Translations under genes and position numbers: made by a program | Shown: piece by piece, positions 24,784 to 56,230 of the stretch | How the letters are laid out: every line of letters begins with the position of its first letter | Numbering within the stretch: position 1 is the stretch's first letter | Notes under the pieces: model-generated | Told to the model about the DNA's origin: nothing | The model's database searches: none | Seen by the model: the letters and a program-made list of their open reading frames with translations, nothing else | Virus record (IMG/VR): IMGVR_UViG_3300036900_000256 | Span: 10,453-74,452 of that record | Strand: one strand, 5' to 3' | DNA from: a virus | Length of the DNA stretch: 64,000 bases

Positions 24784-25988
24784 CCGACTACGGGCTTGTC
24801 AATGTCGGCCGCCTCGCCCTGCGGGAGGCCATCAGGGCGTTCGACGACAAGGTGAACGCCACCACCAGGGCGCGCACCGCGACGATCAGCGGGCAGGAAT
24901 CACTTCCGCCGCTCACCGCCGCCCAACTCGCCGCGCTCCAGGACGACATCCCCGCTCTGATGGACTCGTTCGTGCCGGTGACATTCACGAACAAGTCCGA
25001 CCGCAACGGCTACTACCTGGTGCGCGATGCCGGCGCGAAGTTGTTGTCGTGGACCGGGGAGCTGGTCACCTGCGACTGGGACCTCGCGCTGGAACGACAA
25101 GGCACCGACACCGAGGTCGACATCGAGTCGCGGCTGTCCGGGTCGGCCACCCGCAACAACTCCTTCGCCGCGACCGGTGACCGGTGGCACGCCCCACCGA
25201 TCGGGCACTACGCGTATTACACCGGCTCCACCCAGCCGTCCACTGTGGTGCGGACCGGCGCAGACGGGGCAATGACCGTGTACCGGGGTGTGCCGGTCAC
25301 GGTGAACCCGCGGTGGGGTTGCCCGGTCGGGTCGTACCTGACCGGGCGGTGCCGGTACCTCGACCCGAACGGCATCGAACGCGCCGGGACGAACACCTCC
25401 ACGGCGGCGTCCGGGTGGGAGGTCAACAACGCGCTCGTGCGCGTCCGCCCGCTCACCGCGTCCGGTGTGCTGCAGGTGTCCGCCTATACCGGCGGCGCGT
25501 GGCAGACGAAGAACTGGGACATCCAGTCCGGCGGGGTGTCGATCGGCGTGTTCGACTCGGCGACGGTGTTGCAGAACGAACCCGAAGCGGTCGTCGTGCG
25601 CCTGCTGCGGTCGCAGTCGTCCGGCCGGTACGTCGTGGACGTGACGCTGCGCCGCGGCTCCCGGTTCGCCGAGCTGTACGTGCAGGCCTCCTACTCGGCC
25701 ACCCTGAAGGTCGTCAGGGGCACCACCGAGGCAGGTACCGCCGCCACCGGGTACGTCCGCGCGACGGCGAACGACGCTGCGGGGAACCGGTACATCGTCG
25801 GCTCGACGCTGACCCACACCGCGGATACCACGAACGGCGGCCTGTCGCTCGCCGCGACCACCACCCTGGACGCGTTCATCGGTGTGCTCGCCGCCGGATC
25901 CGGGGCCGTCGCCGGGGACCAGGCCGCTGATCTCTACGCCCAGTACCTCGGTGCCCCCTCCGAACTCGTGCAGGCGGTGCGCCGATGA
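24780..25988 (+). CDS. Minor tail protein
   Basis: GTG 24780 overlaps the tape measure stop; beta-rich. Confidence 0.7.
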   Translation: MTDYGLVNVGRLALREAIRAFDDKVNATTRARTATISGQESLPPLTAAQLAALQDDIPALMDSFVPVTFTNKSDRNGYYLVRDAGAKLLSWTGELVTCDWDLALERQGTDTEVDIESRLSGSATRNNSFAATGDRWHAPPIGHYAYYTGSTQPSTVVRTGADGAMTVYRGVPVTVNPRWGCPVGSYLTGRCRYLDPNGIERAGTNTSTAASGWEVNNALVRVRPLTASGVLQVSAYTGGAWQTKNWDIQSGGVSIGVFDSATVLQNEPEAVVVRLLRSQSSGRYVVDVTLRRGSRFAELYVQASYSATLKVVRGTTEAGTAATGYVRATANDAAGNRYIVGSTLTHTADTTNGGLSLAATTTLDAFIGVLAAGSGAVAGDQAADLYAQYLGAPSELVQAVRR

Positions 25989-28732
25989 CCGTCCAGGAGA
26001 GCCTGCAGAAGCTCGGCCAGTGGTCGCTGAAGCTCGACCCTGGCACCCCGCGCGACGTCCTGGGCCGTATCGGCTACTTCGGGCACATCGCCATCAGCAC
26101 CGGCCGCACGGACCCGCGGGTCGCGAAGGACTCCCTGCTGCGCTCGGCCCGGTACGTCGGGGTGGTGCGCGGCATCTCCCTCACCGACGAGAACAGCGCG
26201 GCCGCGCCGACAATTTCCGGGCCTGGCATGGCGATGTGGCTCGGCGACGAGGACAAGAAGGGGTCGGTGCTGGAGAACGCGACCCCGTTCGCCTCCGGGT
26301 CGTTCACCTCCGTCGTCCGCGCGCTGCTCCCCTCCTCGGGCTCGGTCACCGAGGGCACCCTGTACTCGGTCGCAGGTGTTTATACCGGCACCCACCAGTT
26401 CCAGGACCCACGCACCGCGATCGACTACGTGTGCGAGACGTTCACCTCATCGGACACCGACCCTGTCGGGTGGCGGGTCAACGGCGACGGCACGCTCGAC
26501 GCGGGCAAGGCGTCCCAGCTGTTCACCACCAGCCCAAGGTGCGCGATCATCCGGCGCGGCGCCGGGGTCGACCTGTCCATGCGGGCTCTGCGTGGCAAGG
26601 CGCAGCTCGCGAAGGACGTCGACGACTTCACCACGCGGGTGGTGCTGATCGCGTCCGGCAACGGCGCCTCGGTGGCCACCGGTACGGCGGACATCGCGCC
26701 CGGCCTCAACACGTTCAAAGACGTGCACGGCAACACCGTGGTCATGACCCGGTTGGTGTCCGAGTCCGCCACGGTGCAGGGCAACGCCGCGGCGCGCGCC
26801 CAACTCGCGCTCAATCAGTTCACCGCGGATCGCCGCTCCGTCCGGCTGACCACCGACGAGGTCGACATCAAGGGCACTGCCGCCGTCGGCGACTACGTGT
26901 GGGTCCACAACGACGCCGTCGGCCTGGTCGACCCGGCCAACGAGGTCGTGTTCCGCGGCATGCGCCTACAGCCGGTTCAGTTGCGGCTGATCGAGATGAC
27001 CTGGCCGATCGAGACCGGTATGTCGGTGGCCTACCGGGATCAGGCCGGGGTGTGGACCGATCTCACCGACTATGTGAAGTTCGAGTCCGGGCAGACCAGC
27101 CTCACCGTCGGCGGCTACCAGCGCACGCTCACCAGCGGCGGTGAGGCAGTCGGGTCGCGGCCGGTGGCGGACACCAGCATTCCGGCTGCGCCGACGTTCG
27201 TGACCCCGTTCCGGCAGGCCGTCTACCAGTCCGGCACGACCGGCACGACGAAGGCCCAGGTCCAGGTCGAGTGGGTCAAGCCCGCTAACACCGACGGCAC
27301 GCTGGTGCTGGACGGCGACCGCATCGAGATCCAGTACCGCACCGGGTCGACGCCGATCTTCCCCGCGACGCACTCCCAGATGTCTGCCTACACCCACGCG
27401 CAGCTCGCCGCGGGCACACACGACCAGCCGATCACCTACACACCCGGCCCGTGGCAGTCCACTTACACCAGCTTCGACGACACCAGCCAGCTGATCCAGG
27501 AGCTGACCCCAGGCATCCCCTACGACGTGCGGGTGCGGGCCTACGACTCGTCGAGCCCGCCGAACGTCGGCGACTGGTCAGCCACGACCACCGTGCAGAC
27601 GGTCGGCGACACGATCGCACCCTCCACCCCGGCACCACCGACCGTGGCGGCGTCACGGATCGCGGTGCAGATCATCCACAACCTGGGGCGGTCCGACGGT
27701 GGCACGTTCAACCTCGAACCGGACCTGAACCACCTGGAGATCCACGCCCAGTACACGCCGTCGTATACCCCGGACGACACCACGCGCATCGGGAAGCTGC
27801 TCGCTACCAGCGGGATGATGCTCGGCGAGATCCCCGCCGTCGGCACGTTCCCGGTCGAGTTCACCGACCACGTCTACATCAAGGTCATCGCGGTCGACGA
27901 CGCAGGCAACAAGTCCTCGCCGTCCACCGCAGCGGTGTCGACCATTCTGCTCATCGACGACGCCCACATTTCCGACCTGACCGTCACCAAGGTCACCGCA
28001 GGCACCATCAGCGCTGACTGGCTCGTCGCTGCCACGATCATGGCCGGAACAGCGGGAGCCGGTCGCGTGCAATTGGTGCCGACTGGCCTTGAGGCTTACA
28101 GCCCAACAAATGTAAAAACTGTTGATATTAAGACAGACGGAACCATCTTGATCACCGGGAAGCTTCAGACCGGGGTTAGTTCTGTTGCAGATCGTGTCGT
28201 GGTAGACCCGGCATTGATCACTACCGGTGGCATTAGCGTTCCTGCGGTTGCATGGTATGACGACGGTGACCCCAATAACTACGTACGAGCTTCAACACTC
28301 AATACCAACTATATCCTTGGGGTTCGAAGCAAGACTGACGAGACCCTTCGCGGTGGTAATGTCTATTTCGACCTTCCCGCCGGAGGCGGCTCGGCTTATT
28401 TGGGATACACAACACCATCCACAGACTGGTACTACCAGATCGGTTCAGACGGTGCCCACCACTTGAAGGGGATCTTCCGGAAGACTGAAACTTTGGGAGG
28501 GCTTGGCGCACTACATGTTGACCAGGTCGGAGCATCCGGTTCGAGCATGAGTTATTCGTACGGCCCGACATACGCTTCGACACCTCTTCCATTCGTGGAG
28601 ATTCAGGGAACCAGTGGAAGTCCTCCTACGGCCAGTTCTCACGCATTGACTGCCAGGTCTGCTTCGGGATTCAGTATCCAATATCCTGCCGGAAACTGCG
28701 ATGTTTTGGTGTGGGCGGTGCGCTATGGCTGA
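25985..28732 (+). CDS. Minor tail / tail-tip protein with fibronectin-III-like regions
   Basis: LTPGIPYDVRVRAYD, YIKVIAVDDAGNKS, ISDLTVTKVTAGTI. Confidence 0.75.
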   Translation: MTVQESLQKLGQWSLKLDPGTPRDVLGRIGYFGHIAISTGRTDPRVAKDSLLRSARYVGVVRGISLTDENSAAAPTISGPGMAMWLGDEDKKGSVLENATPFASGSFTSVVRALLPSSGSVTEGTLYSVAGVYTGTHQFQDPRTAIDYVCETFTSSDTDPVGWRVNGDGTLDAGKASQLFTTSPRCAIIRRGAGVDLSMRALRGKAQLAKDVDDFTTRVVLIASGNGASVATGTADIAPGLNTFKDVHGNTVVMTRLVSESATVQGNAAARAQLALNQFTADRRSVRLTTDEVDIKGTAAVGDYVWVHNDAVGLVDPANEVVFRGMRLQPVQLRLIEMTWPIETGMSVAYRDQAGVWTDLTDYVKFESGQTSLTVGGYQRTLTSGGEAVGSRPVADTSIPAAPTFVTPFRQAVYQSGTTGTTKAQVQVEWVKPANTDGTLVLDGDRIEIQYRTGSTPIFPATHSQMSAYTHAQLAAGTHDQPITYTPGPWQSTYTSFDDTSQLIQELTPGIPYDVRVRAYDSSSPPNVGDWSATTTVQTVGDTIAPSTPAPPTVAASRIAVQIIHNLGRSDGGTFNLEPDLNHLEIHAQYTPSYTPDDTTRIGKLLATSGMMLGEIPAVGTFPVEFTDHVYIKVIAVDDAGNKSSPSTAAVSTILLIDDAHISDLTVTKVTAGTISADWLVAATIMAGTAGAGRVQLVPTGLEAYSPTNVKTVDIKTDGTILITGKLQTGVSSVADRVVVDPALITTGGISVPAVAWYDDGDPNNYVRASTLNTNYILGVRSKTDETLRGGNVYFDLPAGGGSAYLGYTTPSTDWYYQIGSDGAHHLKGIFRKTETLGGLGALHVDQVGASGSSMSYSYGPTYASTPLPFVEIQGTSGSPPTASSHALTARSASGFSIQYPAGNCDVLVWAVRYG

Positions 28733-31998: not shown

Positions 31999-32991
31999 AT
32001 GATCTTCGGTGTCGACGTCAGCAACCACCAAACGCACTTCGACTTCGCCGCAGCCGCGCGAGAGGGGTTCGACTTCGCGTTCGTCAAGTGCAGCCAGAAC
32101 GACAACTTCCGAGACGGCCGGTTCGTCCAGCACGCCAACGCTGCCCGCGCGGCCGGACTCCTCGTGGCCGCCTACCACTACCAGGGCACCGCACCCGTCG
32201 CCCGCCAGCTGTCCACCATCAAGGCCATGGCCGGGACGGACATCCCGATCATCCTCGACGTCGAGGACGGGTCCGGCGGGATCGACATCACCCGCGCCCT
32301 GGTAGCCGCACTGCGCGCCGAGGGCTACCAGGTGCCGCTCACGTACTTACCGCGCTGGTACTGGTCGGGGCATCTCGGCTCACCGAACCTGTCCGGGCTG
32401 CCGCCGCTGTGGGTGTCCTGGTACCCGGACTACACGGTGCGGCGCAAGGAGTCCGGGATCGACACAGTGCCGAACTCCGTGTGGAACGGCTACGGCGGCC
32501 TCGACGTCGCCGTCGTGCAGTTCACCAGCTCGGGCGCGGTGGCGGACTACCCCGGCGGCTCGATCGACCTCAACGCGTTCGCGGGCACCCGCGCGCAACT
32601 CGTAACCCTCCTGGAAGGAGAAGACGACGTGAACCTCAGCGACCCGCTACCCACGTACGACGACAACAGCACCACCGTGGAGGAGACCCTCTTCGGCGCG
32701 CATTACCACGCCAAGCAGGCCGATCAGCGAGCCGCACGAATCGAGGTCCAACTCGCCGCGCTAGGCGGCGCACTGTCCGACGCCGAGACGCACATCCTCG
32801 CCGCGAACAGGGAATCCGACGAGAACAGCACGGCAGCCGTGCTCGCGGCCATCCGCGCCCAACCGACCGGCGGCCAGGTCGACGTCCCCGCGCTCGCCGC
32901 CGCACTCCGCGTCGGCCTCGGCGACGAGATCGCCGACGACCTGGCCGACGAACTCGGCCAGCGATTGACCGGTACCCAGGAGGAAATCTGA
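31999..32991 (+). CDS. Endolysin, GH25 muramidase
   Basis: FGVDVSNHQ, FAFVKCSQ, AAYHY, LDVE, QFTSSG, IDLN. Confidence 0.9.
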   Translation: MIFGVDVSNHQTHFDFAAAAREGFDFAFVKCSQNDNFRDGRFVQHANAARAAGLLVAAYHYQGTAPVARQLSTIKAMAGTDIPIILDVEDGSGGIDITRALVAALRAEGYQVPLTYLPRWYWSGHLGSPNLSGLPPLWVSWYPDYTVRRKESGIDTVPNSVWNGYGGLDVAVVQFTSSGAVADYPGGSIDLNAFAGTRAQLVTLLEGEDDVNLSDPLPTYDDNSTTVEETLFGAHYHAKQADQRAARIEVQLAALGGALSDAETHILAANRESDENSTAAVLAAIRAQPTGGQVDVPALAAALRVGLGDEIADDLADELGQRLTGTQEEI

Positions 32992-33362: not shown

Positions 33363-33460
33363 TCCCGCCCCCTAGACCTGCCGTGGCGTCGGCAGGGCCG
33401 GGCCCGGACCAGCGCCCTGGTCTGGGCCCGGCATCCACACCACCACCTGAGGAGATTTTG

Positions 33461-34066
33461 ATGGACATCGGTGTCGTCATCCCTACCCACCCGGCGCGGA
33501 TCACCAACGGGATGACTGCGCGCGCGGTGCAGTCGGTGTGGGCGCAGACGCTCCCGGCCGCCGAGGTGCACGTCACGGTCGACCTGATCGGCGGCGGCGC
33601 GTGGACGACGCGCGACCGCGGACTCCAGGCCGTCCGCGCGGAGTGGGTGGCGTTTCTCGACTCCGACGACGAGCTGATGCCGCACCACCTGGAGGTTCTG
33701 ACGCGCGGTGCGCAGGAGTCCGGGGCGGACTACGTGTACAGCTACTACCAGGTGCGCAACGCCTACGGGCAGGACATCGACTGTGACCCGCTCGGCCACT
33801 TCGGCAAGGTGTTCGACCCTTCCAACCCGTTGCAGACCACGATCGTCACCCTGGTCCGGACCGAGCTGGCGCAAACGGTGGGGTTCCATGCCCCGCCGAT
33901 GGACTCGAAGGTCGGCGGCCAGCGTTACGGTGAGGACTACGCCTTCACCTTGGGGTGCGTCGCGGCCGGGGCGAAGATCGTGCACATCCCCGAGCGCACC
34001 TGGTTCTGGGTCCATCACGGCCGGAACTCCTCCGGGATGCCGGGCCAGGGCGACGCCGCGGCCTGA
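33461..34066 (+). CDS. Glycosyltransferase family 2
   Basis: VVIPTH, WVAFLDSDD (DxD), GEDYAF. Confidence 0.85.
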   Translation: MDIGVVIPTHPARITNGMTARAVQSVWAQTLPAAEVHVTVDLIGGGAWTTRDRGLQAVRAEWVAFLDSDDELMPHHLEVLTRGAQESGADYVYSYYQVRNAYGQDIDCDPLGHFGKVFDPSNPLQTTIVTLVRTELAQTVGFHAPPMDSKVGGQRYGEDYAFTLGCVAAGAKIVHIPERTWFWVHHGRNSSGMPGQGDAAA

Positions 34067-34673: not shown

Positions 34674-34919
34674 TTACCCCTGCGGCGTGTTGGGCACCTC
34701 GGGCATCACCCGGGCCAGCACGGTCAGTTTCGACGCCTCGACCCCATGTCCACACTGCATGCTCAACACCAGGGTCACCCACCACCCGCCCTCCGGGCAG
34801 GGTCGCCGCGGGTGCCTGTCTCCTTCGATGACGACCGTGTCAGGGCATTTCAGCAGGTGGCAGTCGGGTTCATGCTCCCGCAGGAAGGCGAACGCATACG
34901 CGCGGGCTTCCTCAGACAT
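34674..34919 (-). CDS. Hypothetical Cys-containing protein
   Basis: GGAGG SD, ATG 34919, coupled to the HTH gene. Confidence 0.45.
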   Translation of the reverse strand: MSEEARAYAFAFLREHEPDCHLLKCPDTVVIEGDRHPRRPCPEGGWWVTLVLSMQCGHGVEASKLTVLARVMPEVPNTPQG

Positions 34920-35211
34920 CGCGCTCCTCCGTGAAAGTAGGCCAGGTTCGGTTGCGGTTGTCCCTGTGCCACTCCCGGATCTGCTTCGCGATTCCCCCGG
35001 ACACGAACACCACGTTGCGCACCCGGTGCGTCGGGATCTTCCCCGCGCGTGCCTGCTGGTGGAGCGCGGACATGGTGAGTCCAAGCTGATCAGCGAGGTC
35101 CCGGAGCGCTACGTCGGGCAGGTGTTCGTTCTGCATGGTCGTGGAGTATTCCCCGGGGTACGCGCCACGCGGCGGAGCCGGTGGATCTTGTAGCGCGATT
35201 GGGGGTGGCAT
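34912..35211 (-). CDS. HTH (excisionase/MerR-like) regulator divergent from the transfer operon
   Basis: LRDLADQLGLTMSALHQQARAGKIPTHRV. TACGAT lies 7 nt before ATG 35211, suggesting a leaderless start. Confidence 0.6.
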   Translation of the reverse strand: MPPPIALQDPPAPPRGAYPGEYSTTMQNEHLPDVALRDLADQLGLTMSALHQQARAGKIPTHRVRNVVFVSGGIAKQIREWHRDNRNRTWPTFTEERDV

Positions 35212-35233
35212 GGCAGTAATCGTAACCCATCTA

Positions 35234-35252
35234 CTACACTCTCGTGTAGGAT
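35234..35252. promoter_or_regulatory. Palindromic operator overlapping divergent promoters
   Basis: CTACAC-tctc-GTGTAG, overlapping TAGGAT (-10-like) at 35247. Confidence 0.5.
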
Positions 35253-35299
35253 CAGGACCTTAGCGCATCGTGACCGTTTACTCACGAGGAGACACGCCC

Positions 35300-35716
35300 A
35301 TGACCAGCGGAACCAAGACCACCGACGCGCACCTCGTCACCGACATCGTCATGCTCGCCACCCACAACAACACCCAACACGTGCTACTCATCCAACGCGG
35401 ATGGCCACTCCCCGGCGGGTACGTCGACCAAGGCGAGACGTTCGAACAGGCCGCACGCCGTGAACTCGCCGAGGAAACCGGGCTCGTCGCTGCCGACCTC
35501 ACCCGGATCGGAATCTACGACGAGCCGGACCGCGACCCGCGCGGCCGTGTGGTCAGCGTCGCCTACGTCGCCCAACTCGACCACCTGCCTGCCGTGGTCG
35601 CCGGGGACGACGCCCGTGTGGCCCGCTGGGTCCCAGTCGCCCAGCTCCGCGGGCTCGACCTGGCGTTCGACCACGAACAGGTCCTGGTCGATGGGCTCCT
35701 CACCCCCCGCTCCTGA
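35300..35716 (+). CDS. Nudix hydrolase
   Basis: Intact Nudix box GYVDQGETFEQAARRELAEETGL; RDPRGRVVS, LAFDH. Confidence 0.88.
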   Translation: MTSGTKTTDAHLVTDIVMLATHNNTQHVLLIQRGWPLPGGYVDQGETFEQAARRELAEETGLVAADLTRIGIYDEPDRDPRGRVVSVAYVAQLDHLPAVVAGDDARVARWVPVAQLRGLDLAFDHEQVLVDGLLTPRS

Positions 35717-35753
35717 CCCGCAGACCACCACCAGCACCCGGAAGGACACACCC

Positions 35754-36741
35754 ATGGCAGAGCAGCAATCCTCGTCTCCCGCCCGGCGGGAGCGGGAGAG
35801 GAACGGCGGGTGGACCGACGCCGAACTGGCAGCCGAGGTCGCGGCCAAGGCCAGGCAGGCACGCGAACGCTGACCCGACCGCAGACGCACCCACCTACAT
35901 CCGGAAGGACACCACGATGAGCGCGACCAGAGTCGACACCCCCGCGACGCTGCGCGCCGAGCTGGCCGGCGACGCGCTGATCGCCGCCTGGGTGCGGGCA
36001 GGTTGGACCGGCGAACGGATCGTCGCGACGTTGCGGATGGGTCGCTCCAAGGTGCTGCCGAAGGTCGCGCAGGTCCGTGAGGAGTTGGCCGCGATCGGGT
36101 GGCGGCCGCCCGTTCGGCTCGACGAGATCGGCCGCCGCACCCGCTAGCCCCCGGTCGGGGCGGGAGGAATCCCGCGAAGAAGACCCCGCCCCGACCGGGC
36201 CCCAACCCAGCCATCACAAGGAGAAGCGATGACGACCGACTGGTCCGACATGACCCCCGAAGAGCGTGGCAACGCGTTTCGCGCGCACCACATCGACGGC
36301 ATGCCTTACCCGTCCGAGACGGACGTCGACGAGGAACTCGAACAGCTCTTCGACGACAACTGACCCGACCATCACCTGACTGGAAGGTCCCACCATGCTC
36401 CCGGGCACGCACACCCTGGGCAACACGGCCCGCACCTCCGCGATGGCGGGGAGCGCGCCGTGACCGGCCTGACGATCCTCGCCCGCCGCCTGCTGTGGTC
36501 GTGCTCCTACCACGCCCACCTGGCCGCCCTCGCGGTCCTCGACACGGTGCGTTACCTGCTCACCGCCGCCACCCTGCTCACCCACCGGGCACATACCGCG
36601 GTCGCCGAGCACGGCGGAACCGTCGCCGACGTCCTGGACGACGGCCGCGCCTGGGCCGACCGGGCCGAGTTCGACCGCGCCAAGTACCTGCGGCTGGTCG
36701 ACCAGCTGCTCAACGGAATCGACCTGAAGGAGAACCCGTGA
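35754..36741 (+). other. Four small ORFs of the transfer operon (35754-35873, 35917-36147, 36229-36363, 36460-36741)
   Basis: Each has an SD-like sequence (GAAGGA, AAGGAG or GGGGAG). A 15-bp inverted repeat lies at 36150-36199. Confidence 0.5.
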
Positions 36742-37100
36742 CCACCGCCGCCGAGAGGGTGTCGGAGCTCGCCGACGCGGAGCTGTTCACCTCGACCGCC
36801 CTGCACGACTTCGTGATCAAGGTCCGGGACCTGTGCCGGGACGTGGCCTACATCCTGCAGTTCCAGGCCGACACGCTGCAGGCGTCATTGGCGACCCTGC
36901 CCGTCGTGGGCTCGAAGTACGGGTCGCTGGCCTCCAGGGTCCGCGCCCGTTCGGTCGCGTGGTGCATGCGGTCCGCGGCCGAGGCGATCCAGCACGCCGG
37001 GAAGTTGACCGTGAAGGCGTGGTCCCTGTTCCAGAAGTACTACGTCGCCGAACAACAGAAACCGGCCGCCGGGAAGAAGCAGTTCCAAGTCAACTCCTGA
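36738..37100 (+). CDS. TraA-like plasmid transfer protein
   Basis: AAGGAG SD; 120-aa helical protein directly before TraB; SRVRARSVA..AAEA resembles Streptomyces plasmid TraA from memory. Confidence 0.55.
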   Translation: MTTAAERVSELADAELFTSTALHDFVIKVRDLCRDVAYILQFQADTLQASLATLPVVGSKYGSLASRVRARSVAWCMRSAAEAIQHAGKLTVKAWSLFQKYYVAEQQKPAAGKKQFQVNS

Positions 37101-37117
37101 TCCGGAGGGAAGCAGCA

Positions 37118-39088
37118 GTGACGAAGAAGCATCTGGCGAAGGCCGCGCAGGAGCGGGCGGTGGCCCAGGCCACCAGTCGCGGTTCCGTGCTGGTGCGCCC
37201 GACGATGGCGCTGGTCGGCGAGCTGGGGCTGTCGGTGGCGCTGTGGTGCGCCGCGTCGCCGGAGTCGCTGCCGTGGATGACACCCGCCCTGTCGCTGTCC
37301 ACGGCGGCGCTGACCGCGCTGGTGTGGCACACGGGCCGGGACCAGACCCCGGTCGGACGCATCCTCGGGGTGGGGTCCACCGTGCTGACCGGGGCGCACC
37401 TGGTCACCGCGACCATCCTGGGCCCGTTCACGTCGCCGCTGTGGGGGGTGTGGTGCTGGTTGGGCGGCACGACCGCGGCGGCGTGGATGTACCGGCTGTG
37501 GATCGCCCGTGACGACGCCACTGTCGAGGGCGCCAAGCGGCGCGTGTCGATGTGGGACGAGGCGGCGGAAAGGGCCGGTGGGGCGTTGGAGGGCTCCCGG
37601 TTCCGGGCGAAGGAGGCCACCGCCGACCGGATGGCCGGGCCGCTGGAGTTGGAACCGGGGCAGACGGTGAAGGACGCGCAGATGAGTCTGGCCGCGTTGG
37701 AGAGCGTGCTGGGCCTGCCGCCCGGTGGTGCCCGCCTGACCCGCGACCCGGGCCATGCCGCCCGCGGCGAGCTGACGTTGGTGCGGTCGAACGTGCTGAA
37801 GGAGGACCTCGGCTACCGGGGTCCGTCGGCGCTGGGCGGTACCCCGGCCGCGCCGTACCGGGTGGGTCGTTACGAGCACGGCCGGGACGCGGTGCTGCCG
37901 TTGCAGGTCCCCGGCCGCGGCGAGGTGCATCTGATCATCCAGGGGATGACCGGCAGCGGGAAGACCAAGGGCGCGCACCAGCTGTTCGCCGAGGAATTCA
38001 CCCGCGTCGACACGTACACGATCTACGTGGACACGGTGAAGGGCGCCCAGTCGTTGGGCCCGCTGGCGCGGGGGATCCGGTGGGCGATGCGGACCGAGGC
38101 CGAGGCGCACGCGCTGATGAAGGTGCTCAAGGCGCGGGTCATCCCGGTGCTGGCCCAATACCTCGGGTCGCGTGGGCTGGAGAACTGGGAGCCGGGCTGC
38201 GGTTATCCGCGTATCCGGATCCACGTAGAGGAGGGCGCCGGGCTGTTCCTGGGCAACGACGCGTTCATCCGGGTCATGGAGCGTGCCCGGTCGGTCGGTG
38301 TGCAGGTCACGCTGTCCGCGCAGCGGTTCTCCTACACCACTCTGCCGGTGGCGGCGCGCTCCCAGTTCGGCGCGGTGCTGGCCTTCGGGGTCGCCGAGGT
38401 CGAGGACGCGAAGTTCGCCATGCCGGACAAGGTGTTCGAGGCCGGTGCGGACCCGTCGCAGTGGGGCAACAACATGCCCGGCCTCGCCTACCTGGTCGCC
38501 CCCGGTGTGGAGGAGAACGACTATGTGGTGCCGCTGCGGGTGGAGAAGATCGCGCGTGCCGAGTTGGAGGTTCTGGCCGAGTACGCCCGCGTGCACGGTG
38601 CCGAGTTGCCGTCGTTCGTCGCGGAGGCGTTCGGCGAGTTGTACACGTCGCGGGTTCCGGTCGAGCAGATGCTCGCCGAGGGCGCGGTCGTGTTCGCGGC
38701 CGACGAGGACGAGGACTGGGACGACGAGGAGGACGAGGAGGACGAGGACATGCGGGAACCCCCGTGGCAGCCGTCGGAAGCCGACCCGGAGCCGGACGTG
38801 CAGCCGGACATCGACGACCCGATCACCGCGGTGCCGGAGATGCAGTTGGGCGACCGGCCGGTGAAGCTGCCGCCGGTGCAGGCGCGGGAGATGTTCGAGG
38901 CGCGGTTGCGCAGTCTGCAGGAGTCGGGCGCGTCGGCGGTGACGGTGAAGGATCTGACGCCGGTGGCGTTGGAGGCGGGGATGACCGCGGCGTGGTTGTA
39001 CAAGTTGCTGCGGGAGCGGGTCGACTCGGGTCATCTGGAGCGCACAGACGCGGGGTGGCGGTTCGCCCGTGCCCTCACCAACGCATGA
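37118..39088 (+). CDS. traB: TraB-type FtsK/SpoIIIE conjugative DNA translocase
   Basis: N-terminal TM helices, Walker A GMTGSGKT, Walker B IRIHVEE, SAQR, acidic linker, C-terminal winged helix (TAAWLYKLLRERVDSGHL). Confidence 0.82.
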   Translation: MTKKHLAKAAQERAVAQATSRGSVLVRPTMALVGELGLSVALWCAASPESLPWMTPALSLSTAALTALVWHTGRDQTPVGRILGVGSTVLTGAHLVTATILGPFTSPLWGVWCWLGGTTAAAWMYRLWIARDDATVEGAKRRVSMWDEAAERAGGALEGSRFRAKEATADRMAGPLELEPGQTVKDAQMSLAALESVLGLPPGGARLTRDPGHAARGELTLVRSNVLKEDLGYRGPSALGGTPAAPYRVGRYEHGRDAVLPLQVPGRGEVHLIIQGMTGSGKTKGAHQLFAEEFTRVDTYTIYVDTVKGAQSLGPLARGIRWAMRTEAEAHALMKVLKARVIPVLAQYLGSRGLENWEPGCGYPRIRIHVEEGAGLFLGNDAFIRVMERARSVGVQVTLSAQRFSYTTLPVAARSQFGAVLAFGVAEVEDAKFAMPDKVFEAGADPSQWGNNMPGLAYLVAPGVEENDYVVPLRVEKIARAELEVLAEYARVHGAELPSFVAEAFGELYTSRVPVEQMLAEGAVVFAADEDEDWDDEEDEEDEDMREPPWQPSEADPEPDVQPDIDDPITAVPEMQLGDRPVKLPPVQAREMFEARLRSLQESGASAVTVKDLTPVALEAGMTAAWLYKLLRERVDSGHLERTDAGWRFARALTNA

Positions 39089-39112
39089 TCAACTCTGAGT
39101 CGGTGGTCGGCG

Positions 39113-39333
39113 CCGTGACAACCCGCAGACCTGTCACGGGCGCCGAGACGGACACAGAGTCCCTGCTCAGGGCCGTGACACCGCCGTGACACCGCCCGTG
39201 ACAGCCGACGTGACAGCCCGTGAACGGCCGTGACACCGCCGTGAATCGGCCCGTGACAGCCGTGACAACCCCGTGAATCCCGTGACAGCCGCCCAGTCAC
39301 GGCCGTGACCAGCAGAAAGGCAACCCCGTGACC
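39113..39333 (+). repeat. clt-like array of 8-bp CCGTGACA repeats
   Basis: 8 exact and 6 variant direct copies plus 2 inverted copies, immediately 3' of traB. Confidence 0.85.
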
Positions 39334-40725
39334 ACCGCCCCCACCGCGCCCGAAGGCGGCTGGACGAGCCGACGCGCCCGCCACCGGGCGGAGCGCGCGC
39401 ACGCCATGAACCTCCACACCGACGCCCGCAAGAAGCGCGCCGCCCAGACCGCGACCGAACGCGCCGCCGGGCACGCCGAGGACCCGATGAGCTGGCCGCT
39501 GCGGATCCTCGCCACCGCGGTCGCCCTGGTCGTACTCGCCGTCGCGGTCGTGATCGGCGTCGTCGTCATCGGCGCCCAGATCGGGTTCTACGAGACCAAC
39601 CTCACCGTCAAGACCATCAGCTTCGCCGCGCTCGGCATCGACACCCCGCTCGACCTGCCGACCTTCACCCCGCTCGCGACCGAAGGCGTCGTGTGGGCGA
39701 CCACCCTGCTCGCGGTGGTGATGGTGCTGCTCAACCGGACCGCGACCCTGTGGACGCGGTCGATGTGGTTTTTCGCGTCGATCGCCGCGTTCGTGAACAC
39801 GTGGCACGCGGTATTCGAGGAAAAGGATCTGTTCGGCGGTGTGCTCCGGGGCGGGCTTTCCCTCGCGGGTCCTTTCCTGGTGCATCTGTTCATTTTGTGG
39901 TGCCGTCATCTGCGGACCGGCCGGACGCTGGCGCAGGCGCGTATCGACACGGCTGTCCGCTGGGACGGAATCCGTTCGGTCCTATTGGCGCTGGGGCTTC
40001 TGCTCGGCCGTCATGTGGCGCACCCCGTCATCGCGGCCCGCGCGTTGGGTTACCGGCTCGGCGTGGGCAACTGGTCCTACACCGACGCGTGGGCGGCCGC
40101 GTCGGTCGGTTACCGGCGTCGCGTGCAGGCCCGGCTCGACGGGGCGGACACCAACCGGCCCGGTCGCCTCCGGAGTGCGCGACCGGAGGCGACCGGCAGC
40201 GGCGACACCGACGACCGACCGACCGACCCGGCCGCCGTGGTCGAGGACCCGCCTCCGCCGGTCGGCCTGCGCCCGGCGTTCACCGACGAGGAGGCCGAGT
40301 TGCTGGTCGCCCGGCTCATGGACCCGACCTTGACGGTCGCCGCGTTCGATGACCAGCCCGAACCGGCGACCGGAACAGGCGACCGAGAGGCGACCGAGAG
40401 GCGACCGGACGCGACCGACGCAGCGACCGGACCGGCGACCGGCACGCGACCGAAGGCGACCGAACGCACGACCGACACCAGGGCGGGAGGCGACCGGTCG
40501 CGACCGGTCGGCCGCGACCGGAGGCGACCGACGACACGACCGGACACGACCGGAGTCGACGTCTCGGACCTACTCCCGGTCGCCCGCGAGGTGGCGACCG
40601 AACTGGGCGACCGGCTCAGTCGGGACGCGCTCTTGGAGGGGCTGCGGTTGCGGGGCCTGTCGGTCGGTGGTCTGCGTCGGGCCGCGATCTACAACGCCGT
40701 GAAGGACGAACGGGGAAAGGCATGA
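39328..40725 (+). CDS. Spd-like (SpdB2/DUF2637-type) multi-pass membrane spread protein
   Basis: About 4 TM helices (TPLATEG, FVNTWH), low-complexity linker, C-terminal helical domain LSRDALLEGLRLRG. Confidence 0.6.
   Translation: MTTAPTAPEGGWTSRRARHRAERAHAMNLHTDARKKRAAQTATERAAGHAEDPMSWPLRILATAVALVVLAVAVVIGVVVIGAQIGFYETNLTVKTISFAALGIDTPLDLPTFTPLATEGVVWATTLLAVVMVLLNRTATLWTRSMWFFASIAAFVNTWHAVFEEKDLFGGVLRGGLSLAGPFLVHLFILWCRHLRTGRTLAQARIDTAVRWDGIRSVLLALGLLLGRHVAHPVIAARALGYRLGVGNWSYTDAWAAASVGYRRRVQARLDGADTNRPGRLRSARPEATGSGDTDDRPTDPAAVVEDPPPPVGLRPAFTDEEAELLVARLMDPTLTVAAFDDQPEPATGTGDREATERRPDATDAATGPATGTRPKATERTTDTRAGGDRSRPVGRDRRRPTTRPDTTGVDVSDLLPVAREVATELGDRLSRDALLEGLRLRGLSVGGLRRAAIYNAVKDERGKA
40367..40553 (+). 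repeat. Second short-repeat array (CGACCG[G/A]) inside the spd-like gene
   Basis: 16 copies, mostly at 10-14 bp spacing, in mixed reading frames. Confidence 0.75.
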
Positions 40726-40756
40726 CCGGGCCGTTGAATTGACACGATCGAATGCA

Positions 40757-40791
40757 AAGGCCCCCGCTCTCTTCGCCTGAGCGGGGGCCTT
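40757..40791. terminator. Terminator between the transfer operon and the convergent early arm
   Basis: aaggcccccgctc / gagcgggggcctt stem. Confidence 0.7.
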
Positions 40792-42133: not shown

Positions 42134-42679
42134 TCAGATCAGTGCGGTGAGCAGGGCCGACACGAACAGTGCGGCCACATGGGCGGTCTGGTCCAACGCA
42201 TATCGGCCGGTGCCGAGCACGTCACGGTCAAGCGGCACCATGCGCGTCTCCCCCCACTCCTCGCCGCCGCCGCCCGGTGTGCGCGCCGGGACCAGGCGGT
42301 GGGCCAGCACGGTGAACCCGCGCCGAGGGGCACCCAGGTCGTGGAACTCCTGCTTGCCGAGTCGGGCCGCTGCCCAGCGCACCGTCCACCGGCGGTCGAT
42401 GACGTAGTGGGAGACGAACATCCACACCTGCCCGGCGATCAGCCCCGCCCAGGAGACGTGCGCGCCGAGCAGACCGACGGTTGCGGCGAGGAACGGCACG
42501 GCGGTGACGACGTGCACCGCGCAGTGGCGAGCGCACGCCCACTGGCCCGGCCGGTCGTGGTCGCCCTTGTGGATGGCCTGGTGGTCGGTCTGGAACCAGT
42601 GGTCGGCCAGGCCGTGGGCGGCGAGCAGGGCGGCAAAGACGATCGCCGCGGCGAGACCGGGGTAGGGGTCGGGCATCAT
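42134..42679 (-). CDS. DUF3307-like membrane protein
   Basis: HGLADHWFQT, SHYVIDRR, LDQTAH. Confidence 0.7.
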   Translation of the reverse strand: MMPDPYPGLAAAIVFAALLAAHGLADHWFQTDHQAIHKGDHDRPGQWACARHCAVHVVTAVPFLAATVGLLGAHVSWAGLIAGQVWMFVSHYVIDRRWTVRWAAARLGKQEFHDLGAPRRGFTVLAHRLVPARTPGGGGEEWGETRMVPLDRDVLGTGRYALDQTAHVAALFVSALLTALI

Positions 42680-42764
42680 GGGTTTGCTCCGTTCGCGGGG
42701 TGTGGTGGGGCCGGGTCCGGCGGGTGGCTGTGCAGGCATGCCCGCCGGGCCAGGTCAGGTGGGG

Positions 42765-47901: not shown

Positions 47902-48951
47902 TCACCCGGTACCGCCACGCAGATCGGTCGCCTGGGCAGCCGTAAGCAGGCCCTGCTCAACCCAGTGGTCGAACAGATCAATCTGGCCGACCACCTCGGG
48001 AGCGCACCTGGCGCACAACCGCCCAGGCGCGGAAGCCGGGGCGTCTTTCGGTCCGGCACCGTCCTTACCGGCCCCCCACCTGCACCACGGGATGTCCGTG
48101 GCCTCGACCTGGTCCTCAAGGGCGCGGATCTTCGCTGCGACCTCGGGGTAGAAAAGCTCGATCGCCGATAGTTCTCCCGGCTTGGCGTAGGCCCCGCAAA
48201 GGCAGTCGCCGGACATGTGCAGGTTGATCGACACCTCGGACTTCGGCAGAGCGCCGGGGTGGCACAGCATGTGCCGGGCGTGCTCGTGGTGCTCCTGGCA
48301 CTGGAAGCGCTCGCGGTACTCCCGCATGTGCCCTTCGGTCCAGTGCACGATCGGGGACACCCAGATCACCGCGCCGTCCTCGTCCAGCTCGGACGCGTTG
48401 CGGTGGCGGCGGTCGGACTCCGACCAGCGGGTGCCCGCGACGAACGCGATCTGCCCTGCGCGACCGCGGGGACCGACCAGGTTGCGGCGGACCGTGTCGA
48501 GGGCGCGTTCCTTGAGTCGCTGGTACATCACGTCGTGGGCGCCGGATCCGGGGAACCCACGCCACGCGATCTGCCCGTTCTTGACGGTGCGGACCTCGCC
48601 GAGGACCAGCTGCTCATAGGTGTGCGGCGGGACGGCCGACACGACCGGCAGCGTCCACTCGGCGCACACGGCGGTCACGTACTGCGCGGTCTGCGGGATG
48701 CCGATCGAGGTGAGGATGTGCACGGCGCAGTCCATGCGGTCCTTCACCAAATGGGCGAGCAGGCTGGAGTCGCTGCCACCGGAGAACAGCAACAGGAACT
48801 TCTCTGGTTCGTACCGCTCGGCGGCTTCGTCAAGCAGAGCGTGGCTGCGAGCGATCGCCTCGTCGAGGGTCAACGCTGCGTACTCGCGGGCCTTCGGCGG
48901 CGCGACGGCCAGCGCGTCGGGGAAGCCGGGAATGATGTCGAGTTGGCTCAC
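47902..48951 (-). CDS. PAPS reductase-family (PP-loop) protein
   Basis: LFSGGSDS, GTRWSESDRR, SPIVHWT, SGDCLCG. Confidence 0.8.
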   Translation of the reverse strand: MSQLDIIPGFPDALAVAPPKAREYAALTLDEAIARSHALLDEAAERYEPEKFLLLFSGGSDSSLLAHLVKDRMDCAVHILTSIGIPQTAQYVTAVCAEWTLPVVSAVPPHTYEQLVLGEVRTVKNGQIAWRGFPGSGAHDVMYQRLKERALDTVRRNLVGPRGRAGQIAFVAGTRWSESDRRHRNASELDEDGAVIWVSPIVHWTEGHMREYRERFQCQEHHEHARHMLCHPGALPKSEVSINLHMSGDCLCGAYAKPGELSAIELFYPEVAAKIRALEDQVEATDIPWCRWGAGKDGAGPKDAPASAPGRLCARCAPEVVGQIDLFDHWVEQGLLTAAQATDLRGGTG

Positions 48952-55547: not shown

Positions 55548-56230
55548 GACGCCTCCTGTAGTTCGCCTCGGCGGCAGAACGTGCACAGGGGTTTGCCGTC
55601 CGGGCCGCGCCCTGCGGCGAAGAGCGGATGCGTCGCGCAACGACGCGCGCCGCTGGGTACCGGACTTTCCTGATCAACTTCCGCATCGGGTGTCTTGGAG
55701 CTGGCAGGTTCCTGTCCCAGATCGGCCCGAGGTGCCGCTTGCGGCGACTCGGTTCGTCGGGGGCCTGGGGGCGGCGCGCCCCCAGTTGTTCTGGCCCTGT
55801 TGTGGTCTTGTTCTGGTCGTGTCTGATGGGTCTGACGGGTCCCGTCAGATGGGTCTGACCCCCCCGTCAGACCGGTCTGACGGGTTGCCTCGTCCGGATC
55901 GTCCTCCGACCCGTATGACCGGTCTGACGGGTCAGGGATGTATGGCACCCGCTTCTTCTTCTTCCCGTTCGGCCCCTCGGTCCTGATCCACCCCGTGGAC
56001 TCGGCCTCCTTCAACAGCTCGAATACGCGCTGCCGCGACCGCTTGCACTCGACGCCGAGCCGTGCAGCCGACGGCGTCGCGTTGTCCCCGGAGCCATCCA
56101 TGTAGGTGCCGATGAGCAACAGGAAGGACTTCACGTGCCACGGCATGTCCCGGTCGGCGCGAAGGGCCTTCTCCCATTCCCACCGGGTGCTGGCTCGGCG
56201 AGGCCCACTGCTGCTCTGGTCGTCGTTCAC
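55544..56230 (-). CDS. Putative replication initiator (N-terminal winged HTH)
   Basis: PSAARLGVECKRSRQRVFELLKEAESTGWI; contains an iteron array. Confidence 0.65.
   Translation of the reverse strand: MNDDQSSSGPRRASTRWEWEKALRADRDMPWHVKSFLLLIGTYMDGSGDNATPSAARLGVECKRSRQRVFELLKEAESTGWIRTEGPNGKKKKRVPYIPDPSDRSYGSEDDPDEATRQTGLTGGSDPSDGTRQTHQTRPEQDHNRARTTGGAPPPGPRRTESPQAAPRADLGQEPASSKTPDAEVDQESPVPSGARRCATHPLFAAGRGPDGKPLCTFCRRGELQEAS
55818..55931. repeat. Iteron-like dyad repeats (putative origin)
   Basis: Four 22-bp units; the 55863-55884 unit is the perfect palindrome CCCGTCAGACC-GGTCTGACGGG. Confidence 0.7.

Follow-up and report, generated by a model that had tools for sequence, protein, structure and literature searches.

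Analysis of a soil-derived genome of a tailed temperate phage of ~74 kb (74.4 kb) reveals a block of genes that resembles the DNA transfer regions of actinomycete plasmids and AICEs. On balance, we lean towards the explanation that a dsDNA transfer module of plasmid and AICE type belongs to the phage genome as one of its conserved parts and is used for pumping the phage circle between hyphae. What is new is that the phage TraB, judged by its sequence, forms a clade distinct from the TraBs of plasmids and AICEs. The module recurs, intact, in phages and prophages with otherwise different genomes. The 64-kb stretch of DNA that was analysed is called the window below, and its features are listed in Table 1.

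The phage genome and its host

The two ends of the record overlap by 40 bp, so that the record is probably a closed circle and the genome probably whole. The window represents most of the probably circular 74.4-kb genome of a temperate siphophage, the host being a high-GC mycelial actinomycete, most likely of the family Pseudonocardiaceae. Completeness of the record is estimated by CheckV as 72%, and two assemblies, the record and that of a soil metagenome run, break at the same palindrome. This soil metagenome is the single run listed with the sequence of the record, and the record probably came from it; no RNA run carrying the sequence is listed. No tRNA genes were found in the record, and a sigma-70 promoter scan, which is uninformative for actinomycetes, returned nothing.

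The temperate Caudoviricetes gene set is complete (terminase, portal, capsid, tape measure/tail, lysis and integrase), and an Xer-like recombinase is present. In this record (G000) as in a second IMG/VR genome (G001) described below, long uninterrupted ORFs encode TerL, portal, major head protein, tape measure, minor tail and endolysin. Hallmark matches from TerL through to endolysin agree with the first-pass annotation, in which the head, tail and lysis genes had looked intact. Neither ParA (PF13614) nor ParB (PF02195) was found when the phage was searched for them. A 20-kb part of the window, run by megablast against 50,697 phage records, gave no match, and scans with a 584-aa early protein and the endolysin detected no close relative of the phage backbone that could serve for an empty-site comparison.

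Gene content of the module

The module is located between the endolysin gene and the leftward early arm, and its GC content agrees with that of the remaining genome. It comprises, in order, a Nudix gene, five small ORFs of which one is TraA-like, traB, a repeat array, a gene for an SpdB-like protein with four TM helices and a closing hairpin. The block is present as originally proposed, between the lysis genes and the early arm. It had also been suggested that the block lacks Rep, integrase, relaxase and bounding repeats, and our searches concur: no family of integrase, Rep or relaxase matched any of the block ORFs tested, and no convincing direct repeats or att-like sequences flank the block.

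Table 1. Features of the transfer module and hallmark genes of the phage, with positions in the window.
Feature	Position	Strand	Evidence or remarks
TerL	5455-7083		phage hallmark gene
Portal	7192-8841		phage hallmark gene
Major head protein	15450-16499		phage hallmark gene
Tape measure	21094-24783		phage hallmark gene
Endolysin	31999-32991		phage hallmark gene
99-aa ORF, possible small HTH (excisionase-like) regulator	34912-35211	-	divergent from Nudix gene; GC3 frame plot supports coding
Nudix hydrolase	35270-35716	+	Pfam PF00293 E 4.9e-23; phrog_1198 E 4.7e-26
Small ORF, 39 aa	35754-35873	+	GC3 frame plot
Small ORF, 76 aa	35917-36147	+	GC3 frame plot
Hairpin, 15-bp stem	36150-36199		dG -37.5 kcal/mol, z -3.6; between 76-aa and 44-aa ORFs
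Small ORF, 44 aa	36229-36363	+	GC3 frame plot
Conserved ORF, 93 aa	36460-36741	+	GC3 0.94; dN/dS 0.39
TraA-like gene, 120 aa	36738-37100	+	NCBIfam NF041213 plasmid_TraA E 1.2e-10, 41.7 bits (cut-off 80)
TraB, predicted membrane-anchored FtsK-type dsDNA translocase with C-terminal winged helix	37118-39088	+	
clt-like array	39113-39332	+	~16 copies of (C)CGTGA(C/A)A, spacing 9-12 bp, plus two inverted copies
SpdB-like membrane protein, 465 aa	39328-40725	+	4 TM helices, disordered linker, C-terminal HTH-like domain (translation)
Second array, inside SpdB-like gene	40367-40613	+	~18 GCGACCG copies, spacing 10-13 bp, all three reading frames
GC-rich closing hairpin	40758-40791		dG -35.3 kcal/mol, z -5.2, 0/200 shuffles as stable
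Tyrosine integrase	61584-63254		phage hallmark gene

The translation of the divergent 99-aa ORF contains an HTH-like stretch, 'LRDLADQLGLTMSALHQQARAGKIP', which appears excisionase-like when judged by eye, and the ORF has no family match at E<=0.01. Thus the divergent HTH regulator of the first-pass annotation is retained as a divergent ORF with a by-eye motif, but it is not recognised by any HMM. The Nudix gene has homologues near traB in two of the related elements, L063 (47%) and G002 (38%), and it occupies the place of the Pif-type conjugal-immunity genes of AICEs. Pif-type Nudix genes provide conjugal immunity in AICEs, pSAM2 included (PMC2440964). The three small ORFs that follow (35754-36363) have no family matches and share a repeated motif of RBS and ATG. 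The hairpin between the second and the third of these interrupts the gene run, which makes it doubtful that the block is one operon, as was earlier assumed. The 93-aa ORF is 84% identical in the fragment L065 and 48% identical in L063.

At its far end the module is closed by the hairpin at 40758-40791, which faces the convergent early arm and has no T tract. The hairpin is strong and stands where a terminator had been noted to close the block.

TraA and TraB

The TraA-like gene directly precedes traB, which is the position of traA in pSN22 and pJV1, and it starts with a GTG that overlaps the stop codon of the 93-aa ORF. Orthologues before traB are matched by the same profile (NF041213) in G001 (E 8e-13), G005 (E 1e-13) and G002 (E 8e-5). 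A TraA-like gene had been claimed for the block; the candidate is the 120-aa gene and not the 93-aa ORF.

TraB matches NCBIfam NF041214 plasmid_TraB with an E-value of 3.2e-110 (369.5 bits) over profile positions 17-635 of 639, and phrog_24831 with an E-value of 5.7e-94. It is ~30% identical to the TraB of 51 actinomycete plasmids. The score is below the equivalog cut-off of NF041214 (369.5 vs 800 bits), and by its sequence TraB is a clear homologue of plasmid_TraB, yet a member of a divergent subfamily that could have taken on another job. Pfam FtsK_SpoIIIE does not match TraB, and a profile comparison with PDB FtsK reached only E 0.077. Together with the plasmid comparison and the tree described below, the NF041214 match bears out the proposal that TraB groups with conjugative TraBs, apart from chromosomal FtsK.

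The AF2 model of TraB (pLDDT 78.6) shows helices at residues 23-132, a motor at 170-520 and a winged helix at 586-649. The best PDB match of the model in Foldseek is the FtsK motor 6t8o (E 1.4e-16, TM 0.68 by target). The predicted architecture fits that of the family, with an N-terminal membrane segment, an FtsK-like ATPase with Walker A and B motifs and a C-terminal winged helix. Residues K282 and T283 of Walker A and E371 and E372 of Walker B are invariant among 26 TraB homologues. The dN/dS is 0.17 for the TraA-like gene and 0.20-0.24 for traB, and values of ~0.2 indicate that both genes are under purifying selection.

Repeat arrays and the membrane partner

Nine of the ten exact CCGTGACA octamers in the 64-kb window fall within 39113-39287, the 175 bp directly after traB, in agreement with the 8-bp repeat array that had been noticed at this place. 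If only the core CGTGA[AC] is considered, there are 16 copies in 39114-39332. Plasmid clt regions consist of direct 8-bp repeats that are recognised by the cognate TraB (PMC4447253), and by analogy the CCGTGACA array is a probable set of docking repeats for TraB, that is, the clt of the phage.

An array is present at the same place after traB in six elements (G000, L066, G001, G002, G005 and L063). The fragment L066 shares the array of G000, and the other four have a GGGTGAnA array there. The CCGTGACA arrays of G000 and L066 are paired with a winged helix of the type 'EAGM[TS]A.WLYK...DAGWRF', and the GGGTGAnA arrays of G001, G002, G005 and L063 with the type 'AAGRSPAWVYK...DTGFRF'. The array sequence thus appears to covary with the winged helix of TraB, in two lineages only, which amounts to one independent change.

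The SpdB-like protein encoded after the array is 71% identical in L066 and G001. No Pfam or NCBIfam family among those searched, DUF2637 included, matches it, and its nearest ESM Atlas clusters are DUF2637 (0.92) and HTH_SpdB_C/SpdB_N (0.88-0.91). The earlier description of the protein as Spd-like fits its position, its topology and this language-model look-up, but has no HMM match behind it. The membrane gene downstream of traB comes in two unrelated types, and BLASTP detected no similarity of the SpdB-like protein to the type-2 downstream protein or to the spd-region protein of pSN22. The GCGACCG array inside the gene is kept in L066 and G001 despite poor conservation of the encoded peptide, and type-2 downstream genes have a GACCCGAC array in its place.

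A TraB clade carried by phages

In our tree the TraB clade comprises 26 sequences, is monophyletic with an SH-aLRT support of 100 and is a deep sister to the TraBs of plasmids and AICEs. Among 29 close homologues, the context could be read for this record, G001, G002/G346, G005 and L063, with L065 and L066 as fragments. All five readable contexts are siphophage-like elements whose structural (head/tail) genes are not homologous to one another. G001 is an IMG/VR genome with direct terminal repeats, rated 100% complete by CheckV, with TerL, portal, major head protein, tape measure and endolysin. G005 is an integrated prophage of Lentzea cavernae CGMCC 4.7367 (portal, head protease, major head protein, tape measure and endolysin), and G002 is an integrated prophage in the genome of a second Pseudonocardiaceae isolate, also rated 100% complete (TerL, head protease, major head protein, tape measure and endolysin). 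L063 is a 231-kb metagenome contig, the flank of which contains homologues of G001 genes.

The module of traA, traB, array and membrane gene is conserved and intact in the five elements with their different phage backbones, and so occurs in at least four other, otherwise different phages or prophages. Within the genome, the module is placed differently in G000 than in G001. G001, G005 and L063 show the canonical layout of GntR gene, traA, traB, array and membrane gene, with the GntR gene in its canonical place, divergent from the module. In the window, no GntR-type TraR/KorA repressor is found beside traB; a short GntR (TraR/Kor-type) gene is located outside the window, at position 8919-9335 of the record, 38 kb from traB. 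The first-pass annotation had allowed that the block might be a decayed insertion confined to this phage. Conservation of an intact module under purifying selection on five different backbones argues otherwise, and we reject a decayed AICE insertion on the grounds of the intact ORFs, the dN/dS of ~0.2, this conservation and the lack of att-like flanks.

Clade TraBs are present in 2 of 401 Pseudonocardiaceae genomes, both times inside prophages, and ordinary TraBs in 31. Searches of 50,697 phage records by tblastn with this TraB and the TraB of pSN22 found no full-length TraB; the similarity that was detected was partial and confined to the ATPase, in FtsK-like genes that Bacillus phages and cluster-J mycobacteriophages carry. 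As no cultured phage among these records has a full-length TraB, no virion of the TraB-clade group has been seen. When IMG/VR was scanned with a pattern made from TraB as a single protein, nothing was returned, and a pattern from aligned ordinary TraBs of Pseudonocardiaceae gave at least one further IMG/VR contig, in an exact-pattern step that is no census.

Comparison with known transfer systems

The FtsK/SpoIIIE C-terminal winged helix reads 8-bp motifs. The phage TraB resembles FtsK/SpoIIIE in the fold of its motor domain, its membrane anchor and its C-terminal winged helix, which is likewise predicted to read 8-bp motifs. Unlike the motifs of FtsK/SpoIIIE, those of the phage are clustered at one locus and not spread and skewed along a chromosome, and traB sits on a phage.

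The module shares with Streptomyces plasmids (pSN22, pJV1, pSVH1 and pIJ101) and the AICE pSAM2 a full-length TraB homologue, and with plasmid transfer regions a TraA-like gene directly upstream, 8-bp direct repeats near traB as the candidate clt (PMC4447253) and a membrane partner downstream. The Nudix gene is common to pSAM2 and other AICEs (PMC2440964), and a divergent GntR gene, as in plasmid TraR-TraA-TraB regions, is found in the relatives G001, G005 and L063. In contrast to these regions, the phage module resides in a 74-kb genome with full virion and lysis genes and has no Rep or integrase of its own; its TraA and TraB are under the NCBI equivalog cut-offs, its TraB falls in a separate clade, the GntR gene of this phage is displaced and short, and the membrane partner lacks sequence similarity to the spd-region protein of pSN22. 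AICEs are compact (about 10-25 kb) and encode Int, Rep and Tra of their own but lack virion genes (PMC3218068), unlike the present 74-kb element, which has head, tail and lysis genes and a block without Int or Rep.

The closest precedent for a conjugating phage genome is pZL12, and the idea is thus not without precedent. This Streptomyces plasmid-phage (phage ZL12, GQ919031; Zhong et al. 2010, J Bacteriol 192:3747, cited in PMC3583192, PMC4487206 and PMC7157519) was tested and is reported to conjugate and to have a lytic cycle (PMC3583192), and it is described as a singleton and an extrachromosomal ParAB plasmid-prophage (PMC4487206, PMC7157519). Like the phage described here, it is a tailed-phage genome of a mycelial actinomycete, and the FtsK/TraB-type tra gene of pZL12 adjoins membrane genes. 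However, pZL12.71c is only 25% identical to the phage TraB over 248 aa (pairwise E 2e-4) and lies far outside the TraB clades. The phage-plasmid type of pZL12, P1 and N15 is not matched, as our phage has a tyrosine integrase and no ParA/ParB was found, and the relatives G002 and G005 are chromosomally integrated. Conjugal movement has been reported or predicted for the 'conjugative prophage' Phi1207.3 of Streptococcus pyogenes and for E. coli conjugative phage-plasmid cointegrates (PMC4260502; bioRxiv 10.1101/2025.03.14.643293), but these have other hosts, ssDNA/T4SS or unknown machinery and no TraB/clt.

Proposed role of the module and alternative explanations

In the explanation towards which we lean, membrane-anchored TraB hexamers would bind the CCGTGACA array through their C-terminal winged helices. 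The FtsK-like motor would then drive circular phage DNA, either excised or incoming, through hyphal contacts and septal cross-walls in unprocessed, double-stranded form, with the help of TraA and the SpdB-like membrane protein. The Nudix protein, if Pif-like, would keep one carrier from transferring futilely to another. Once inside the recipient, be it a compartment or a mycelium, the phage genome would integrate via the tyrosine integrase or turn lytic. The module would thus serve the phage circle itself, in a capsid-independent transfer from hypha to hypha, and TraB-carrying phages may also spread without particles. The computational checks named with the first-pass annotation all came out in its favour, the array being matched to the DNA-binding domain of TraB, and its interpretation is partly supported. 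We infer the DNA binding, the pumping of the phage circle, its timing and its benefit to the phage from the genes, their family and fold, the array and its conservation.

The same plasmid TraB performs both transfer and intramycelial spread. It is possible, though unlikely, that the TraB pump works within one mycelium only, as a viral movement or segregation device with no transfer between individuals. It would then either move replicating or excised phage genomes across cross-walls into adjoining compartments or, FtsK-like, see to it that spores and hyphal fragments inherit a genome that is not integrated. Plasmid TraB and Spd proteins also drive intramycelial spreading (PMC4447253), an SpdB-like partner is conserved beside traB, and the record, with its Xer-like recombinase, resembles a free circle in its sample. 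As plasmid TraB does both steps, nothing here separates them, but a segregation device would be needless for the two clade members that are stably integrated prophages, and the absence of a ParA/ParB match also speaks against it. We give little weight to a passenger role, in which the module would be a transfer cassette of AICE or plasmid type that works for itself or for the host (for example, in chromosomal mobilisation via clt-like sites) and does nothing for phage spread. Against it, the module has neither integrase nor Rep of its own and no flanking repeats, and its TraBs are not scattered AICE captures but form a phage-specific clade that in Pseudonocardiaceae genomes is confined to prophages. 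Besides, a clt on phage DNA makes the phage genome the cargo of TraB first of all. Nevertheless, TraB systems are able to mobilise chromosomal DNA (PMC11571958), phages carry many morons, and the differing genome positions and the two unrelated downstream membrane genes would suit a passenger.

It seems quite improbable that the phage parts are defective or domesticated, so that these would be conjugative elements or plasmid-prophages with conjugation as their only working route. The CheckV value for this record, the lack of a known isolate virion of the group and the phage/plasmid border blurred by pZL12-like elements would be compatible with it. However, the hallmark ORFs of G000 and G001 are long and uninterrupted, G002 and G005 have four hallmarks each and a head protease, G001 (with its terminal repeats) and G002 are rated complete, and the overlapping ends suggest that the present record is probably whole. 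Re-use of a TraB-like ATPase for superinfection exclusion, genome entry or defence, with the repeats as a regulatory operator or an origin, is highly improbable, as the TraB match is full length with membrane part and winged helix included, the TraA partner and, in three relatives, the canonical layout are conserved, and the architecture of the array is that of clt (PMC4447253). The points on its side are the FtsK/HerA-type ATPases of defence systems among the lower-ranked fold matches, the FtsK-like genes without an assigned role that occur in Bacillus phages and cluster-J mycobacteriophages, and the TraB score under the equivalog cut-off.

A bolder extension of hypha-to-hypha pumping is tentative, and we rate its chances somewhat short of even: the anciently separated, phage-specific TraB clade might be a viral cell-to-cell movement system, by which chromosome-integrating temperate siphophages of mycelial actinomycetes routinely spread naked dsDNA from hypha to hypha, independently of receptor and capsid. 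Each phage would then have its own TraB-clt specificity pair, and the second array, which runs through three frames inside the SpdB-like gene, would be a docking site for the HTH domain of the SpdB-like protein itself.

Implications

By the usual view, phages need particles and surface receptors to spread, whereas cell contact is what conjugative elements need. If TraB-clt works in the phage, both routes, particle and contact, would be open to it. The phage could then bypass receptor-based resistance, a single entry could lysogenise whole mycelia, and the border between prophage and AICE would be blurred in the bacteria that make most antibiotics. The two array types, CCGTGACA and GGGTGAnA, with their winged helices would offer natural pairs of TraB and 8-bp site in which the reading of DNA by FtsK-type pumps could be studied. 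Direct tests are within reach, as Lentzea cavernae CGMCC 4.7367 and another sequenced isolate of the Pseudonocardiaceae each have a member of the clade integrated in the genome.

A temperate siphophage genome on a probably closed circle

PHROGs and Pfam searches of the window give the layout of a temperate siphophage of the normal type, with a rightward late arm and a leftward early arm (see the table). GC content lies between 0.65 and 0.71 throughout, and there is no GC break at the module region (34912–40791). In the 10.4 kb preceding the window lie genes for an XRE-DUF5753 regulator and an RNA ligase, together with a GntR gene and a second tyrosine recombinase, which is Xer-like. The TraB phages all share a regulator of the XRE-DUF5753 type accompanied by small Xis-like ORFs, from one to several in number (68–1198 of the whole record; 21401–22477 of G001, an IMG/VR genome; 39457–41484 of G002, a provirus). 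In G001, and in the present phage when read over the circle junction, the set adjoins the integrase; it may serve as an immunity and excision switch. The early arm also encodes a PAPS-reductase-domain protein, possibly with a DNA-modification or anti-restriction function, and a DUF3307 membrane protein (phrog_2470), genes for which also lie a few kb from traB in G002, the Lentzea prophage and a Nocardiopsis locus.

The IMG/VR record, whose bases 10453–74452 make up the window, totals 74,452 bp and is labelled 'linear' with a CheckV completeness of 72%. Its last 40 nt (window 63961–64000) match its first 40 nt (1–40 of the whole record) at 38 of 40 positions, and this end repeat sits inside a palindrome with an 18-bp stem. 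The sole public run containing the sequence is a soil metagenome, whose independent assembly yielded contigs of 25,252 and 49,167 nt with the same break point, and the end genes of the record are adjacent genes in a related genome with direct terminal repeats. The end repeat, the shared assembly break and this adjacency point to a genome that is probably circular and closed, about 74.4 kb in size, and neither linear nor 72% complete.

Features of the phage genome and of the module (window coordinates unless marked; "record" denotes whole-record coordinates)
Feature	Position	Strand or arm	Evidence or remark
Rnl1-type RNA ligase	record 2502–3698		PF09511; before the window
Second, Xer-like tyrosine recombinase	record 5577–6674		before the window
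GntR gene, short	record 8919–9335		PF00392, E 2e-20; before the window
Large terminase (TerL)	5455–7083	rightward late arm	PHROGs/Pfam
Portal	7192–8841	rightward late arm	PHROGs/Pfam
Head morphogenesis	8838–9890	rightward late arm	PHROGs/Pfam
Major head protein	15450–16499	rightward late arm	PHROGs/Pfam
Tape measure	21094–24783	rightward late arm	PHROGs/Pfam
Minor tail	25985–28732	rightward late arm	PHROGs/Pfam
Endolysin	31999–32991	rightward late arm	PHROGs/Pfam
Glycosyltransferase	33383–34066	rightward late arm	PHROGs/Pfam
99-aa ORF	34912–35211	leftward	excisionase-like HTH motif, by eye only
Nudix hydrolase	35270–35716	+	E 5e-23
Two small ORFs	35754–35873, 35917–36147	+	GC3 frame plot
Hairpin, very stable	36150–36199		dG -37.5 kcal/mol
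Two small ORFs	36229–36363, 36460–36741	+	GC3 frame plot
TraA-like gene, 120 aa	36738–37100	+	NF041213 E 1.2e-10, under the 80-bit cut-off
TraB	37118–39088	+	NCBIfam plasmid_TraB
Membrane protein, 465 aa	39328–40725	+	four hydrophobic helices
Hairpin facing convergent early arm	40758–40791		dG -35.3 kcal/mol, z -5.2
Early arm	starts ~40824	leftward	
DUF3307 membrane protein	42134–42739	-	phrog_2470
PAPS-reductase-domain protein	47902–48951	-	
RecE-like exonuclease	58849–59898	leftward early arm	PHROGs/Pfam
Tyrosine integrase	61584–63254		PHROGs/Pfam

Composition and conservation of the module

Gene content of the module was resolved by a GC3 frame plot and family searches. The first-pass annotation had placed a block of TraA, TraB, repeat array and membrane gene between the lysis genes and the early arm; gene calls and family searches confirm this block with corrections. 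It had also described the block as free of Rep, integrase, relaxase and bounding repeats, and indeed family searches of 34912–40791 gave zero matches to the three gene families and repeat searches found no convincing flanking direct repeats.

The TraA-like gene lies immediately 5' of traB in the L. cavernae prophage, G001 and G002, in the fragment L065 and in L063 (the end of a 231-kb metagenome contig), and Nudix homologues are close to the module in L063 and G002. A divergent GntR gene is present about 2 kb upstream in G001, L. cavernae and L063, in the place of TraR/KorA in pSN22. This is not so in the present phage, where the short GntR gene is displaced by 38 kb; the homologues divergent before traA-traB in the other three are full-length. 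Comparison with the nearest relatives gives traB a dN/dS of 0.20–0.24; the value is lower for the TraA-like gene (0.17) and higher for the membrane gene (0.41). In G001 (55806–56306), the L. cavernae prophage (49433–49897) and L065 (2–457), the TraA-like gene is preceded by a peptidase-M50B-like (HExxH) membrane gene; the window yielded no homologue of this gene.

TraB belongs to a phage-type clade

The NCBIfam plasmid_TraB profile is covered whole by the traB product (E 3.2e-110; 369.5 bits, the equivalog cut-off of 800 bits not being reached), which is about 30% identical to the TraB genes of 51 actinomycete plasmids. Its family is already present in PHROGs as phrog_24831, annotated 'unknown function'. 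Modelled with AlphaFold from 26 homologues (pLDDT 78.6), the protein is predicted to begin with hydrophobic helices and to end in a winged helix, with a motor domain and a disordered acidic linker between them; FtsK motor domains are the top PDB matches of the model (E 1.4e-16).

Among 5.8 billion proteins searched, 29 were close homologues at 44–74% identity, with both Lentzea cavernae and Saccharothrix violaceirubra represented, and the loci of homologues were obtained by pattern scans and genome searches. All readable contexts of the clade are phage-like, namely those of the present phage, G001, G002, L. cavernae and L063. G001 is a 59.7-kb genome with 127-bp terminal repeats (CheckV 100%) which carries TerL, portal, major head protein, tape measure, endolysin, DnaB and integrase. 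G002, a 79-kb provirus carrying TerL, head protease, major head protein, tape measure, endolysin and integrase, is 100% identical to a stretch of the complete 7.35-Mb chromosome of a Pseudonocardiaceae isolate. In L. cavernae, endolysin, tape measure, major head protein, head protease and portal are located 4–25 kb from traB, with an integrase 43 kb away on the opposite side, while the flank of L063 carries homologues of G001 genes. Homology among the structural genes of the present phage, G001 and G002 is undetectable, so the module occupies different backbones.

In a maximum-likelihood tree, 26 phage-type TraBs form one clade (SH-aLRT 100), whose sister is a clade with pSN22, pJV1, a Nonomuraea plasmid and chromosomal (AICE-type) TraBs. 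Two IMG/VR contigs (35 kb, 40% GC) carry a TraB-like gene with 32% identity, sister to the phage-type clade. Of the 401 Pseudonocardiaceae genomes sampled, only two hold the phage-type clade (>1000 bits), one in the G002 prophage and one in the L. cavernae prophage, and 31 hold ordinary TraBs (at most 366 bits).

An octamer array follows traB and varies with its winged helix

CCGTGACA has ten exact matches in 64 kb, nine of them inside a stretch of 175 bp, and the CGTGA[AC] core is found sixteen times inside 220 bp, a clustering that far exceeds chance. An array of 9–16 octamers follows traB in all six elements with readable 3' sequence, starting at most ~100 bp past the traB stop codon and ending at the start of the membrane-protein gene. 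The CCGTGACA type is found in the present phage and its closest relative, the fragment L066 (TraB 80% identical); the GGGTGA(C/G/A)A type, followed by few inverted copies, is found in G001, G002, L. cavernae and L063. When the two types, CCGTGACA and GGGTGACA, are set against the TraB winged helix (residues about 586–656), the helix changes with the array, from 'EAGM(T/S)A.WLYK...DAGWRF' with CCGTGACA to 'AAGRSPAWVYK...DTGFRF' with GGGTGAnA, which represents one independent change only. The clt regions of plasmids consist of 8-bp direct repeats, the sites that the matching TraB recognises (PMC4447253), and such covariation is therefore what is expected of cognate TraB-clt pairs. G001 has the GGGTGAnA array and the matching helix, yet its downstream membrane gene is of the type of the present phage, so the intergenic array goes with TraB and not with the neighbouring gene.

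The gene after traB encodes one of two unrelated types of membrane protein, each with four hydrophobic helices, a long low-complexity linker and an HTH-like C-terminal end. Neither type was recognised in HMM searches; a language-model look-up placed the type of the present phage nearest to DUF2637 and SpdB clusters, as a lead only. In both types the linker-coding region holds a second dense array. It consists of 15–18 copies of GCGACCG at 10–13 bp spacing in the present phage (window 40367–40613), L066 (2059–2279) and G001 (629–942), and of 14–20 copies of GACCCGAC in the type-2 genes of three loci (L014:11317–12489, L007:12223–13329 and L063:12250–13425). The motif occupies all three reading frames in both types and is conserved as DNA, the encoded peptide being poorly so. 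The second array may be a DNA-level site or a product of replication slippage.

A candidate conjugative phage

The same machinery, TraR-TraA-TraB-clt-Spd, is found in Streptomyces plasmids and AICEs. The proposal that a temperate phage carries it as a conjugation module is supported as far as sequence reaches, and the best-supported reading is that TraB acts on the array to pump circular phage DNA between hyphae or compartments. TraB would load on the octamer array and move the circle from hypha to hypha or from compartment to compartment, TraA and the SpdB-like protein would help transfer, and the Nudix protein may act like the conjugal-immunity factor Pif (PMC2440964).

It is also conceivable, if rather unlikely, that the pump is used inside one mycelium only. 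That the module is a selfish passenger cassette appears improbable, that the element is a conjugative element with defective phage parts more so, and that TraB is a re-purposed ATPase highly improbable; all three are made less likely by the phage-specific TraB clade, by the intact virion genes and by the fact that the candidate clt is carried on the phage's own DNA.

Experimental precedent for a conjugating phage genome is the plasmid-phage pZL12, as cited in PMC3583192, PMC4487206 and PMC7157519. pZL12 is an extrachromosomal ParAB singleton, whereas the present phage has an integrase, no ParA or ParB was found in it, and two of its relatives are integrated. The Tra candidate of pZL12 shares 25% identity with the phage TraB over 248 aa only and lies far outside the TraB clades in the maximum-likelihood tree. 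Full-text literature searches turned up no integrating phage described as having a TraB/clt module, and the 50,697 deposited phage records searched held no full-length TraB. The interest of transfer by TraB in such phages is raised by the existence of culturable lysogens of the TraB clade; one of these prophages is integrated in the culturable Lentzea cavernae CGMCC 4.7367.
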